Positions 13,640-21,155 of a stretch of DNA of 31,768 nucleotides are shown in pieces. Position 1 is the stretch's first letter. The number at the start of each line of letters is the position of its first letter. The DNA comes from a virus (Duplodnaviria > Caudoviricetes). The translations under genes were made by a program, and so were the position numbers. The notes under the pieces are model-generated. The model saw only the letters and a program-made list of their open reading frames with translations, searched no databases and had not been told where the DNA came from. The stretch lies in the IMG/VR virus record IMGVR_UViG_3300017914_000231, positions 1 to 31,768 of that record; one strand, written 5' to 3'.

Positions 13640-13666
13640 AAAAACCCCGCCCCCGAAAGGGCGGGT
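13640..13666 (-). terminator. GC hairpin oriented as a minus-strand terminator
   Basis: A5 precedes CCCGCCC-CCGAAA-GGGCGGG, so the U-tract is on the minus strand only. Confidence 0.5.
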
Positions 13667-13728
13667 AAACCATAGGAGATGATGGTCGGGGAAACCATCA
13701 AAGCCAGTGTAACAAATAGGAGATATTA

Positions 13729-13923
13729 ATGATACATTTTGGAGAAAGTCTTAAGCGAGCGCAGAAGCTTACAGGGGTCAATTCTACTGACCTTGCGGGC
13801 TTGCTTGGCGTAAAAAAGCAGCAAATATTCATCTGGCGTAACAAGGAAAACTGCCGCTTAGATACAGCTGTTAAGGTGAGTCAAGCTTTAGGCTTTACCG
13901 TTGATGAGTTTATTTCCCTGTAA
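13729..13923 (+). CDS. Cro/XRE-like HTH regulator
   Basis: 64 aa; FGESLK..STDLAGLLGVKKQQIFIWR..LDTAVKVSQALG; AGGAG RBS. Confidence 0.85.
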   Translation: MIHFGESLKRAQKLTGVNSTDLAGLLGVKKQQIFIWRNKENCRLDTAVKVSQALGFTVDEFISL

Positions 13924-13937
13924 GCAAATGTAATACT
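13909..13937 (+). promoter_or_regulatory. Putative sigma70-like promoter for the downstream structured element
   Basis: TTTATT-17 nt-AATACT with extended TG; the predicted +1 (about 13943) coincides with the first stem. Confidence 0.45.
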
Positions 13938-13942
13938 TAAAA

Positions 13943-14202
13943 GTTATCGGGCTAGAGGCTAGGGAATCACTTGAATTAAACCCTAGAGACGAGTTGCCAA
14001 TTACTGACATAGCCTACGGAGAGAGTCGGTACTCTTGAAGTAATAGATTAGATATTCGATACGATAACGACATATACCGCTGAGTCGCTCGCGCCCTCAG
14101 ATCGTTTTTTAGCAGCGTTTGCGTTGTTAAGGGTTAAGGGTGCTTGTATAAAAATATGTATTTAAAGTTACTTTCAATCAATCAGGCGAGGTTTACCGAG
14201 CC
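13943..14202 (+). ncRNA. Candidate structured ncRNA and/or replication origin
   Basis: Longest ORF-free stretch of the genome, with at least seven complementary segment pairs (see findings). Confidence 0.55.
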
Positions 14203-14217
14203 ATAGGAGATAAGAAG

Positions 14218-14442
14218 ATGTCGCAAGCTGAAAGAGTTTTACAGTATCTAAAAAATGGTAATACGATCACTACATTGAATGCGTTCAATGAGTTAGGGAT
14301 TACACGTTTAGCCGCCAGAGTTCACGAGTTAAAAAGAGACGGTTATAACGTAATGAAAAAAACAATAACAGTTAATAACAGATATGATGAAAAATGTTCT
14401 GTTGCTGAATACTACTTAGGAGACAATCATGCTACTGAATAA
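14218..14442 (+). CDS. Winged-HTH DNA-binding protein (HTH_39-like)
   Basis: SQAERVLQYLKNG..IT...A...LGITRLAARVHELK..GY...VAEYYL. Confidence 0.8.
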   Translation: MSQAERVLQYLKNGNTITTLNAFNELGITRLAARVHELKRDGYNVMKKTITVNNRYDEKCSVAEYYLGDNHATE

Positions 14443-14806
14443 CGGAGATACCTACACCCCAGATGATGCCGATGTTATTGCTTGGCAGAAAACCTATCCG
14501 GCAATCGATGTCTATCAGGAACTAAATGCAATGGAGTCATGGCTAGACGCTAACCCATCGCGTAGAAAGACCGCAAGAGGTATCAAGCGTTTTATCAACT
14601 CATGGCTTTCACGCGCTCAAGATCGTGGCGGCTCGCCACAAGTTAGGTCTAAGAAGAACAGTAGCCGAGATGTAAGTGTTGAAGATAAGCTTGCAGACGT
14701 ATCTTGGGTTCAGAATGAAGAGGCTAAGGCAAGGGCGATGAGCCTATTTACTAGCAAGTACGGCTTCTATTGGGACGGAGAAAAGAGGGTCGAAAAGCAT
14801 GGGTAA
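14429..14806 (+). CDS. Stand-alone C-terminal domain of a phage replication initiator (replisome organiser)
   Basis: W..TYPAIDV.QEL..M..WL.ANP.RRKT.RGIKRFINSWL.RAQD resembles the C-terminus of O-like initiators; only 125 aa. Confidence 0.6.
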   Translation: MLLNNGDTYTPDDADVIAWQKTYPAIDVYQELNAMESWLDANPSRRKTARGIKRFINSWLSRAQDRGGSPQVRSKKNSSRDVSVEDKLADVSWVQNEEAKARAMSLFTSKYGFYWDGEKRVEKHG

Positions 14807-15080
14807 TATCAAGTATGTGAAGTACAAAGGTACTAAGTCTAAGGTATTAGAAACAGGCAAGCTGTACACCTATAAAGAGATAGCCGCCGCCGCTAACGTA
14901 AGCTATCGTTGCATGACAAGCCGTATAGCTGCCAGAGACTTTTTCACCGATAAAGAACTCGCGCCGCTATGCGACAAGAAGATACCAAAGCGTTGGCGTA
15001 ATGCCGCTGACTATACGCATAGTCGATTTGATAACCCTATAGAAGCTTTATCAGACAAATACTTAAGGTTAAAGCTATGA
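14799..15080 (+). CDS. Basic hypothetical protein, possible HTH
   Basis: YTYKEIAAAANVSYRCMTSRI; overlaps both neighbours. Confidence 0.6.
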   Translation: MGNIKYVKYKGTKSKVLETGKLYTYKEIAAAANVSYRCMTSRIAARDFFTDKELAPLCDKKIPKRWRNAADYTHSRFDNPIEALSDKYLRLKL

Positions 15081-15535
15081 CGCAAGGTACGTTCATCAAG
15101 TACAACAGCGCAGATGACGTTGACAAAAAGATCAAGTTCTTGATCGATCAGCTTAAGGGGTGGGATTATTCTCGCCCCTTAGCACTTAAGCTAGAGCCAT
15201 ATCAGGACGAAAGAAGCCTAAGCCAGAACGCACTTTTCCATATGTGGTGCAGAGAGATAACGAATCAGATGAAAAAGAAAGGCTTTCACGTTGTCGAGGG
15301 TGATGCGGTAGAGGCATGGAAGCTTTGGCTTAAGAGACGCTTTTTAGGGACTGATAATTTTCGCATTCGCAACACTACTATAGAGGGGCAAGTTCGCCGC
15401 AGTAGTGCGCTAAATAAGGGCGAGATGGTACATTTTATGGATCAATGCTATCATTGGGCTACAGAGCAAGGTATAAAGTTAACCGTACCACTCGAAAGTG
15501 AATATGCTGAGTTAAAAAACCAACAGGAGAAATAG
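15077..15535 (+). CDS. ninB: NinB/YbcN-family protein
   Basis: RSLSQNALFHMWCREI and SSALNKGEMVHFMDQ..WA.EQGI.L motifs. Confidence 0.8.
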   Translation: MTQGTFIKYNSADDVDKKIKFLIDQLKGWDYSRPLALKLEPYQDERSLSQNALFHMWCREITNQMKKKGFHVVEGDAVEAWKLWLKRRFLGTDNFRIRNTTIEGQVRRSSALNKGEMVHFMDQCYHWATEQGIKLTVPLESEYAELKNQQEK

Positions 15536-19830: not shown

Positions 19831-20412
19831 ATGCTAGGCATAAACTATAGGAAAACAGGGGAGTTAATACCCTATGTTAATAACTCGCGTACGCACAGCG
19901 AACAACAAATACAACAGGTAGCGGCAAGCATTAAGGAGTTCGGGTTTACTAACCCTATTCTCATCGATGATGAAGATGGGATTATTGCCGGTCATGGCAG
20001 ACTAGCGGCGGCACAGCTACTTAATCTAGATACAGTGCCTACGATAACGCTATCTGGCTTGTCGGAAGCACAGCGTAAAGCGTACGTTATAGCTGATAAC
20101 AAACTCGCTTTAAACAGCACTTGGGATAGCGAGATGCTAGTTAACGAACTGGCAGAGATAGCTAACTCAGACATCGACTTCTTGCTGACTGGCTTCGATG
20201 AGATACCAGACCTAGAACCAGAGGTAGACTTCGGCTTGCTAGATGAGGACGTAGACACCCTAGAAGATGGTTGCAAGAAAGCTATACAGATAGAGTTCGA
20301 CCTTGAGCATTACGAAGAAGCTTACGAACTGGTCAAGTTCTGGCGAGACAAGGGCGCGTATGTAGGCTATATGCTGCTTAACTATCTAAGGGCAGAGAGG
20401 GATAAGCTATGA
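19831..20412 (+). CDS. ParB/Sulfiredoxin N-terminal-domain protein
   Basis: LIPYVNNSRTHS..SIKEFGFTNPILID..IIAGHGRLAAA..AYVIADNKLA..WD motifs. Confidence 0.9.
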   Translation: MLGINYRKTGELIPYVNNSRTHSEQQIQQVAASIKEFGFTNPILIDDEDGIIAGHGRLAAAQLLNLDTVPTITLSGLSEAQRKAYVIADNKLALNSTWDSEMLVNELAEIANSDIDFLLTGFDEIPDLEPEVDFGLLDEDVDTLEDGCKKAIQIEFDLEHYEEAYELVKFWRDKGAYVGYMLLNYLRAERDKL

Positions 20413-21155
20413 AGCTAGTTGAACTTACTCAAGTTGAGCATGATATAAGCATCGGCGATATGTGCGGAGACAAGGAAGCTACCGTTAGTGATGATTGCAT
20501 CTTTACACAGGACGGTAAGCCAATCGGTTTCTTCATCAAGAAGATGCCAGAGAAAGCTTGCAAGCTTGCTAATCTAGCTAATCACGAGTTGCGTAGTGAT
20601 AATGTACCTAAGACGGCTATGGTAAGAGCATCTGGCGTAGAGCAGTTCAGTTGCATTATAGGCGGAGTACCACCGAAGCCGCATATGCGTAGACCTTATC
20701 CGAGCATATCCTCAGTACATCAAAAGAAATCAGCGCGGAACTTTATCAAGGCGATGATACTCTTAGCTAGAGAATCAGAGAAGCTTATTGAAGAACACTT
20801 GCCAGAGCAGTATGCTAAGCAGAAAGAGATATTCGATCAGATCGATGACAAGTGGAAGATAGGCAACCTGTTCACTTCATCTATTAGCAATTACAACATT
20901 AGCGCACCGTTCCACAGAGACACTGCGAACATCAAGAACACAGTCAATGTGATTATAACGAAGCGTAAGAACAGCACAGGCGGCAATCTCTGCGTACCAG
21001 ATTATAACGCCACGATAGACCAGTGCGATAACTCGATGCTAGTTTATCCGGCTTGGCGCAACGTGCATGGTGTAACACCTATCGTACCTACTCACGATGG
21101 GGGCTACAGAAACAGTTTAGTATTCTATCCCTTACAGGCATTTATCAACGCATGA
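20409..21155 (+). CDS. 2OG-Fe(II) dioxygenase, TET/JBP-like
   Basis: N..APFHRD (HxD at 20913-20921), GGNL, HGVTPI (distal His) and YRNSLVFY (2OG-binding Arg). Confidence 0.8.
   Translation: MKLVELTQVEHDISIGDMCGDKEATVSDDCIFTQDGKPIGFFIKKMPEKACKLANLANHELRSDNVPKTAMVRASGVEQFSCIIGGVPPKPHMRRPYPSISSVHQKKSARNFIKAMILLARESEKLIEEHLPEQYAKQKEIFDQIDDKWKIGNLFTSSISNYNISAPFHRDTANIKNTVNVIITKRKNSTGGNLCVPDYNATIDQCDNSMLVYPAWRNVHGVTPIVPTHDGGYRNSLVFYPLQAFINA

Follow-up and report, generated by a model that had tools for sequence, protein, structure and literature searches.

In the accepted view, origins of lambdoid phages are arrays of iterons to which the HTH of the initiator binds. In hundreds of phage contigs from the environment, a headless initiator goes with a compact predicted RNA instead, and the locus studied here raises the question of what such an RNA does. 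The window, i.e. the whole stretch of 31,768 bp that was analysed, is a phage record that is complete and bears direct terminal repeats. When 46 ORFs were scanned against PHROG and Pfam, tail, lysis, Sak, NinB, NinG, terminase, portal and capsid genes were recognised, and there was no match to a helicase, primase, polymerase or loader. Nearly all genes share one strand, and the same scans yielded no match to an N or Q antiterminator. GC skew in 1-kb bins, a check named in an earlier note on this DNA, is positive throughout with no switch. That note had described about 290 ORF-free nucleotides in the replication module as a promoter-driven, folded element, either a new non-coding RNA or an RNA-primed origin. 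Indeed, the interval from the stop of the cro-like gene (13923) to the start of the small winged-helix (wHTH) gene (14218) contains no ORF that reaches 60 aa, and the Cro-like gene is the upstream neighbour of the element in most close relatives, too.

Outside this stretch, a G+C-rich hairpin that is terminator-like on the minus strand comes after the ssb-like gene, and another hairpin, which matches skipping-rope only weakly (E 9.4), follows within the same interval (13640-13705). An acetyltransferase gene sits within the tail module (1631-2098), and before terminase a ParB-like gene adjoins a gene matching a PHROG annotated as queuine tRNA-ribosyltransferase (20409-21155).

A structured element behind the cro-like gene

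Single-sequence folding of the stretch is no better than that of shuffles (z of 0.19 on the plus and 0.60 on the minus strand), and therefore only homologues show structure beyond chance. Loci were gathered in two independent ways, via the neighbouring 125-aa protein and via DNA patterns; in the initial pattern scan, about 25 of the 61 matches were due to chance. A profile placed the element in 360 loci, many of them redundant, of which 350 could be anchored and gave 223 distinct sequences. These form a family of structured elements of ~190 nt, termed class 1 here. Its covariance model matches 13938-14143 of the window at 166.8 bits, the window being part of the training set. For IMG/VR we estimate ~580 stretches with one pattern, chance matches included, and 68 of the 80 loci fetched with their flanks were real. 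The element was found neither in 50,697 GenBank phages nor in GTDB genomes, for which 100 of the 120 pattern loci were tested with the model and a stricter pattern also gave none.

In an alignment of 61 representative homologues, 89.4% of the cells are paired compared with 70.0% in shuffles and 37-47% with partners slid, and two-sided changes occur at 38 of the 46 pairs. The 15 pairs of P1, P3 and P7 comprise 822 Watson-Crick, 32 G-U and no A-C cells, which fixes the plus strand. P1 closes a junction of P2, P5 and P6, P2 closes P3 and P4, and P7 and P8 follow (Table 1). Many unpaired bases are invariant, and P7 is missing in the short form of the class. All eight complementary pairs named in the earlier note are present in the window at their positions, and the homologues allow them to be judged. 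The stems GTTATCG/CGATAAC (P1; 99% of cells paired, two-sided changes at 6 of 7 pairs), CTAGGG/CCCTAG (P3; 99.7%, 6 of 6 pairs), GGCTA/TAGCC (P2; 92%) and CTGAG/CTCAG (P7) are confirmed. The AGAG/CTCT hairpin (P5a) also covaries, in a register one base away from the proposed one, and the TTAGCAGCG hairpin (P8) exists as a stem of variable length whose inner five pairs align poorly (40%). A doubled TTAAGGG is present in the window, while the relatives displayed have one copy. The proposed pseudoknot ATTACT/AGTAAT has to be abandoned: pairing is seen in 48% of its cells, the first two pairs cannot form in 57 and 58 of the 61 sequences, and AGTA pairs instead with TAC at 14015-17.

The homologues point to other pseudoknots. 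PK1 joins the P5a loop to the bases just after P1; 217 of the 222 cognate pairs score 10 or more, compared with 37% of 3,313 non-cognate pairs, and the variants comprise CGGTT/AACCG, CGGTA/TACCG, CGAG/CTCG, TCAGCA/TGCTGA, CAGTG/CACTG, TGACT/AGTCA and others. Only 79% of its cells are paired in the 61-homologue alignment, because the short form is out of register there. In the candidate PK2, 206 of 207 CCC loops accompany GGG or longer and five of five CC loops accompany GG, the latter possibly reflecting just one or two events. Loop 4 reads TTGCCAAT in the window and TTGACCCT in most relatives, and the 3' AAGGG is near-invariant in class 1. Six sequences including the window combine the loop TTGCCAAT with GGG (four loops were not classed). 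With this loop and the retained GGG, PK2 is shortened or lost in this genome, where only ~3 pairs are possible. Judged by covariation, class 1 is doubly pseudoknotted, with a second pseudoknot that is weak in this genome.

Rfam 15 gave no match at family threshold in the window or in 16 relatives and nothing up to E 10 over the element itself, and ARAGORN found no tRNA or tmRNA gene. Likeness to a group I intron, RNase P or a T-loop motif is improbable, as the helix order does not fit and Rfam gave no match. A self-splicing intron was rejected as well, since in most relatives a terminator-like hairpin stands between cro and the RNA, and the RNA is followed by diverse genes, each with a start of its own, before the initiator domain described below. 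The earlier proposals of a folded RNA in the replication module and of its belonging to no known family are in line with these data, i.e. the strong covariation, the 32 G-U versus no A-C cells and the empty Rfam search. We conclude that class 1 is a real, new structured RNA family, whose RNA nature is predicted from covariation and G-U wobbles. Some class-1 variants (L280, L290, L294, L296, L298, L049, L055, L056, L169) carry extra hairpins before P3 or near P6 and are useful for mapping peripheral positions.

Table 1. Coordinates of the features in the window and of further element classes in other contigs
Feature	Position	Strand	Basis and remarks
Cro/C1-type HTH gene, lambdoid cro position, upstream of element	13729..13923	+	Pfam HTH_26, E 3.9e-5
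Predicted sigma70-type promoter	13909..13937	+	weak -35 TTTATT 13909-14; extended -10 TG-n-AATACT 13929-37
Structured non-coding element (class 1), predicted RNA	13943..14135	+	covariance model and covariation
5' domain	13943..14068	+	covariation, mutual information
P1	13943-49/14062-68	+	covariation
P2	13950-54/14010-14	+	covariation
P3	13959-64/13981-86	+	covariation
P4	13992-94/14003-05	+	covariation
P5	14015-17/14040-42	+	covariation
P5a	14021-25/14032-36	+	covariation
P6	14046-47/14056-57	+	covariation
3' domain: P7 14080-84/14096-100; variable hairpin P8 14109-30	14080..14130	+	covariation
PK1: P5a loop CGGTA 14027-31 with TACCG 14075-79	14027..14079	+	mutual information z 8.9 for 14031-14075
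PK2 (candidate): loop 4 with 3' AAGGGTT 14129-35	13994..14135	+	loop/partner covariation
A+T-rich tract (83%), candidate unwinding element	14144..14184	+	
Tandem G-A hairpin 14185-202, then ribosome-binding site ATAGGAG 14203-09	14185..14209	+	
Small winged-helix protein (HTH_39), accessory	14218..14442	+	Pfam E 3.3e-15; at 152 of 263 loci
Stand-alone C-terminal domain of phage replication initiator, 125 aa, extra 45-aa tail	14429..14806	+	
Class 2, unrelated conserved non-coding element, ~270 nt	L054:2330-2600; L061:1720-1990; L335-L349		no Rfam match
Class 3, shared element (E 1.4e-8)	L279:1200-1500; L068:748-980	L068: -	apparent compensatory changes
Class 4, conserved gene-free element	L619:18330-18723 (Vibrio phage 1.275.O); L620:1950-2357; L622:3501-3842 (phage NF)		

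The sigma70-like promoter proposed in the earlier note, with its +1 at the first stem, was not detected by a standard promoter scan of the window. An extended -10 is present 5 nt ahead of that stem, and the -35 matches 3 of 6 positions; the predicted +1 is 13943 or a position directly before it. Promoter-like sites are located upstream of 76% of the 207 distinct flanks compared with 45% of shuffles (strong sites: 34% versus 13%), mostly ~80 nt or 5 nt before P1, and a consensus scan for a minus-strand site of the antisense RNA I type found none within the element. Two hairpins of most close relatives, one terminator-like and the other a leader hairpin, are missing in the window. In 18 of 22 distinct promoters (L001-L046), an inverted repeat of 4-7 bp spans the spacer with its sequence varying in step, and this repeat is a candidate operator for the Cro-like protein. 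From the window it has been lost, as has the cro terminator.

Behind the element, the A+T-rich tract is restricted to the long form (80% versus 59% A+T over 117 relatives). The tract occurs in the window, in 83% of the 117 long forms and in 1% of the 104 short forms, and the tandem G-A hairpin was found in 100 of 117 long-form and in none of 104 short-form sequences. Hairpin and tract are thus present as the earlier note had it, but as accessory features of the long form only. The ATAGGAG site serves whichever gene comes next.

Expression was queried with a relative (L007) instead of the window, and 21 runs contain part of it, 7 of them recorded as RNA; runs that contain a relative carry the labels marine, seawater, aquatic or viral metagenome. 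The selection was for runs in which the element occurs, and these may include DNA, so that their contigs are evidence neither for nor against transcription. In eight runs compared with L007, all contigs had a depth of 2-15 over the element. Every one of the three contigs of run X10 and the single 318-nt contig of run X15 lie on or across the element, in run X12 a contig begins near the predicted promoter with a depth of 14.6 versus 2.5-6 for the other listed pieces, and in runs X2, X3, X4, X9 and X14 the contigs are scattered over the locus.

Initiator domains without a DNA-binding head

The 125-aa ORF downstream of the element has no Pfam or PHROG match. It corresponds to the C-terminal domain of 29 longer, full-length initiators, consistent with the truncated initiator suspected before, and the N-terminal HTH is absent from it. 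Several of the full-length relatives carry HTH_36, Lin1244_N or Phage_rep_org_N heads, and a DnaC-like ATPase or G39P-like loader comes after them. A cultured-phage match of the protein is annotated as replisome organizer. Its structure model (pLDDT 85.5) gave no match with Foldseek, and the best two of 48,161 chains were DnaT ssDNA-binding domains (one with Z 4.7 and an rmsd of 3.8 over 67 residues, the other with Z 4.5), both below the trust level of 8 of the tool and with no sequence match; a DnaD-like chain reached Z 3.8. The model therefore suggests a fold that is weakly DnaT/DnaD-like. The 45-aa tail was considered as a candidate RNA binder. It is present in all eight stand-alone proteins tested and in the full-length initiator of G007, and it is missing from the 29 full-length initiators without the RNA, but it is also missing from those of G006 and G016, which both have the RNA. 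The G007 initiator (L370:1536-2291) ends in two copies of the tail motif, which is otherwise only seen on stand-alone domains. In agreement with the earlier note, there is no iteron array, as the five largest repeat families in 13640-15100 have only two copies each. Internal repeats of 22-24 bp were found in four of five full-length initiators checked (L080, G006, G007, VPBES), L078 being weak.

Among 140 loci collected via the protein, the stand-alone domain has the element at 94 and lacks it at 5, another 12 loci being too short, while the full-length initiators have it at none, lack it at 23 and are too short at 6. The informative loci thus give 94 of 99 versus 0 of 23, a comparison confounded by the fact that loci are related contigs rather than independent cases and that most full-length cases come from distant hosts; one locus (L068) was classed as stand-alone by hand. 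The covariance model found nothing convincing on the 29 full-length loci (best E 0.41). Starting from the RNA, the domain follows downstream on the same strand at 61 of the 62 viral loci whose flank is long enough (another 6 are too short), and at 47 of 47 such metagenome loci, for which the pattern selects the short form. The distance between RNA and domain is up to 1656 nt, and the first gene after the RNA varies, with HNH and methylase genes often inserted directly behind the RNA in other loci. The wHTH gene is present at only 152 of the 263 loci with RNA and domain, and the role suggested for it in the earlier note is not supported; a frameshift fusion of wHTH and domain is improbable, the wHTH being absent from the other 111.

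Four of the five stand-alone-domain exceptions have other conserved non-coding elements, L054 and L061 class 2 and L279 and L068 class 3, and the fifth (L065) is a fragment. Class 2 occurs at 15 loci, four with the domain and the others beside SF2-helicase/primase-fragment modules or elsewhere. Class 3 is near a stand-alone domain each time, in L068 on the opposite strand and 2 kb off. Class 4 is located upstream of short replication proteins without HTH; for classes 3 and 4, with two sequences each, the structure is a candidate. The cultured Vibrio phages 1.275.O and 1.122.A have the same domain stand-alone, at 135 aa, behind a gene-free gap of 600 nt. VPBES encodes it within a 322-aa initiator that carries five 24-bp iterons, and shows no such gap. 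The Vibrio gap is not class 1 and has no Rfam match. It recurs at 75% identity in phage NF before a 185-aa 'replication protein' without HTH head, which may resemble the C-terminal domain of lambda O. A long hairpin region in the 1.275.O gap (L619:18160-18295) is shared by about ten other Vibrio phages, sometimes beside tRNA.

An independent case of class 1 is G016, a complete temperate phage with integrase, repressor and cro. Its divergent RNA (76.8 bits) is found at the lambda-O position, and 11 nt farther on lies the gene for a 123-aa protein whose match to the initiator family phrog_270 is confined to positions 174-286 of 383 (E 1.3e-7). For this protein, we found no BLAST likeness to the G007 initiator, no longer homologue and no other locus. 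An ORF with a weak homing-endonuclease match (E 0.0077) enters the 5' end of this RNA (L614:9500-9883).

Do RNA and domain recognise each other? Over 75 loci, the Spearman correlation with RNA distance is 0.40 for the domain, 0.39 for cro and 0.55 for NinB, and the partial r between RNA and domain is -0.002. As far as sequence distances tell, there is no specific co-divergence beyond shared descent, which argues against sequence-specific recognition and fits a protein that sees only displaced ssDNA. Besides, proteins identical at 92 of 93 and at 102 of 117 residues sit beside class 1 or class 2. Both findings weaken the idea that the RNA is a specific scaffold for the protein.

In a podovirus-like clade of 12 contigs, class 1 is found between the terminase genes in antisense orientation, with 152-170 bits and compensatory changes. 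Two of its members, G006 (93% complete) and G007, are without the domain and encode full-length HTH_36 initiators with iterons. In G006, a TATAAT of its own precedes P1 of the element by 6 nt, a T-rich/A+T-rich run lies behind, no gene on the same strand follows immediately, and there is a separate promoter-like site for the next early genes. The RNA of this clade could be a second origin, similar to the several origins of T4, or show another RNA role.

A possible RNA-based origin and competing explanations

The element may well be an origin of the R-loop type that is based on RNA and takes the place of the HTH-iteron half of the lambdoid initiator, a reading to which we give about even chances. 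The analysis shows the fold, the strand, the two pseudoknots, the pairing with headless initiators, the missing HTH and iterons and the exchangeable RNA classes. From these we infer transcription, co-transcriptional folding, R-loop retention, ssDNA binding and host helicase loading. Host RNA polymerase would initiate at the first stem, and the RNA would fold while being made. Upon reaching the 3' AAGGGT end, loop 4 would pair with AGGGT of either the RNA itself or the displaced non-template DNA strand; the two are identical in sequence, and covariation cannot separate these partners. The transcript would be held on the template as an R-loop that reaches into the A+T-rich tract. Binding of the headless DnaT-like domain to the displaced strand would then bring in the host helicase, and the 3' end of the RNA could serve as primer. 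By these steps, the RNA would do the job of the HTH and iterons lost from the 5' half of the initiator.

The association with stand-alone domains (94/99 versus 0/23, and 61/62 and 47/47 when starting from the RNA), the iterons of full-length initiators that the window region lacks, the G016 case, the other elements in the exception loci, the Vibrio architecture, the DnaT domains as best structural matches and the lack of a helicase, primase, polymerase or loader match in the window speak for an origin. Against it stand the antisense clade of 12 contigs, the lack of co-divergence, the relatedness of the loci behind the association, the short form without A+T tract, the weakened PK2 of the window and the low scores of the DnaT match, which Foldseek did not reproduce. 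In a wider version, which is possible but which we hold only tentatively, lambdoid phages would repeatedly have swapped the DNA-binding head of the initiator and the iterons for a folded RNA, with at least four unrelated classes serving three headless families as origin-recognition module, and the nascent class-1 loop would capture its own non-template strand and hold the origin open.

Alternatively, the element might encode a free, trans-acting phage RNA with its own promoter, such as a protein decoy, an anti-defence RNA or a ribozyme, that owes its place in the early region to descent. The G006 element resembles such a stand-alone unit with its TATAAT, T-rich run and no gene directly behind, the RNA lacks specific co-divergence with the protein, and the invariant unpaired bases would suit a binding or catalytic core. 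However, this explanation is unlikely, as it accounts neither for headless initiators in three domain families nor for unrelated RNAs in the same slot.

RNAs of the put type, as in HK022, are antiterminators that cause read-through of downstream terminators. A put-like antiterminator, or another leader RNA modifying RNA polymerase for read-through of the one-strand operon, would fit an element that lies behind cro and heads a transcription unit, in a nearly one-stranded window with no N or Q match. Yet no operon lies behind the G006 element, where the next early genes have their own promoter-like site, and the headless initiators are given no reason, which makes this role rather improbable.

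The structure could also form in the displaced plus strand DNA as a primosome assembly site, with transcription merely opening it. The G-T wobbles would suit single-stranded DNA equally, and a DnaT-like neighbour would fit the phiX174 pas pathway (PMC5778457). The predicted +1 at the first stem in short-leader forms speaks against such a site. Moreover, pseudoknots, of which there are two here, and tandem G-A pairs are typical of RNA, and we regard a DNA structure as a poor candidate.

Finally, a translational switch for the initiator gene similar to ColIb-P9 repZ, with PK2 hiding or exposing the AAGGG as ribosome site, is very improbable: the initiator does start ~10 nt behind AAAGGG in many short-form loci and in G016, but the arm is adjacent only in some short forms, the first gene of the window and the long form uses its own ATAGGAG ~70 nt further on, 293 nt and another gene separate element and initiator in the window, and elsewhere the first gene varies, with as much as 1656 nt between element and domain.

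If the RNA is the origin, it would add an RNA-specified mode of initiation to the tailed phages and give a function to a new structured RNA class that is small enough for cryo-EM or crystallography. It would also explain a family of 'hypothetical' proteins and provide a rule for finding more classes, i.e. to look upstream of headless initiators. The cultured Vibrio phages share the architecture, which makes the idea testable and offers an experimental model.

Relation to known systems

The element shares the position between cro, initiator and nin as well as the C-terminal domain with lambda O-type initiators (phrog_270, HTH_36, Phage_rep_org_N). Unlike these, its locus lacks the HTH head and iterons and has a structured element upstream instead. 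In ColIb-P9 repZ, a long-range pseudoknot between a loop and a downstream sequence precedes the initiator gene. The element is similar in having a pseudoknot ahead of an initiator gene, but in the long form it is not tied to a start codon, and neither a leader peptide nor an antisense RNA was seen.

Fremin et al. (PMC10690425) list the candidate DNAVirus_1632, a mostly marine phage motif with 389 sequences before HTH_39/HNH_3 genes; at only 69 nt it may be the 3' hairpin or a piece of the element. Otherwise, we found no description of the element in a literature search with subscription journals mostly outside its coverage. DnaT, of the PriA restart primosome in E. coli, binds ssDNA and helps to load DnaB in restart pathways at R-loops and at the phiX174 pas hairpin (PMC5778457). 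The likeness of the initiator domain to E. coli DnaT is one of weak fold only (12-16% identity, Z 4.5-4.7).

ColE1 RNA II is a primer RNA origin of ~550 nt (PMC5043065). Like it, the element is a folded non-coding RNA driven by a promoter, here a predicted one, in a replicon without conventional origin-binding initiator. In contrast, it measures ~190 nt, its fold is unrelated, no equivalent of the antisense RNA I was found, and a phage protein domain accompanies it; the ColE1 hallmark of no replicon-encoded initiator fails here, as the initiator domain follows at 61 of 62 and 47 of 47 loci. The T4 origins oriF and oriG (PMC3016281) are R-loop origins with a promoter and then an A+T-rich tract, and several origins can coexist in one phage; neither a particular sequence nor a fold of the RNA is required for these R-loops, which rely on a phage replisome. 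A predicted promoter with an A+T-rich tract is seen in the window and mostly in the long form, whereas the conserved RNA fold and the lack of a phage helicase match set the element apart. By analogy, the element would work like ColE1 RNA II and T4 oriF while being a member of neither.
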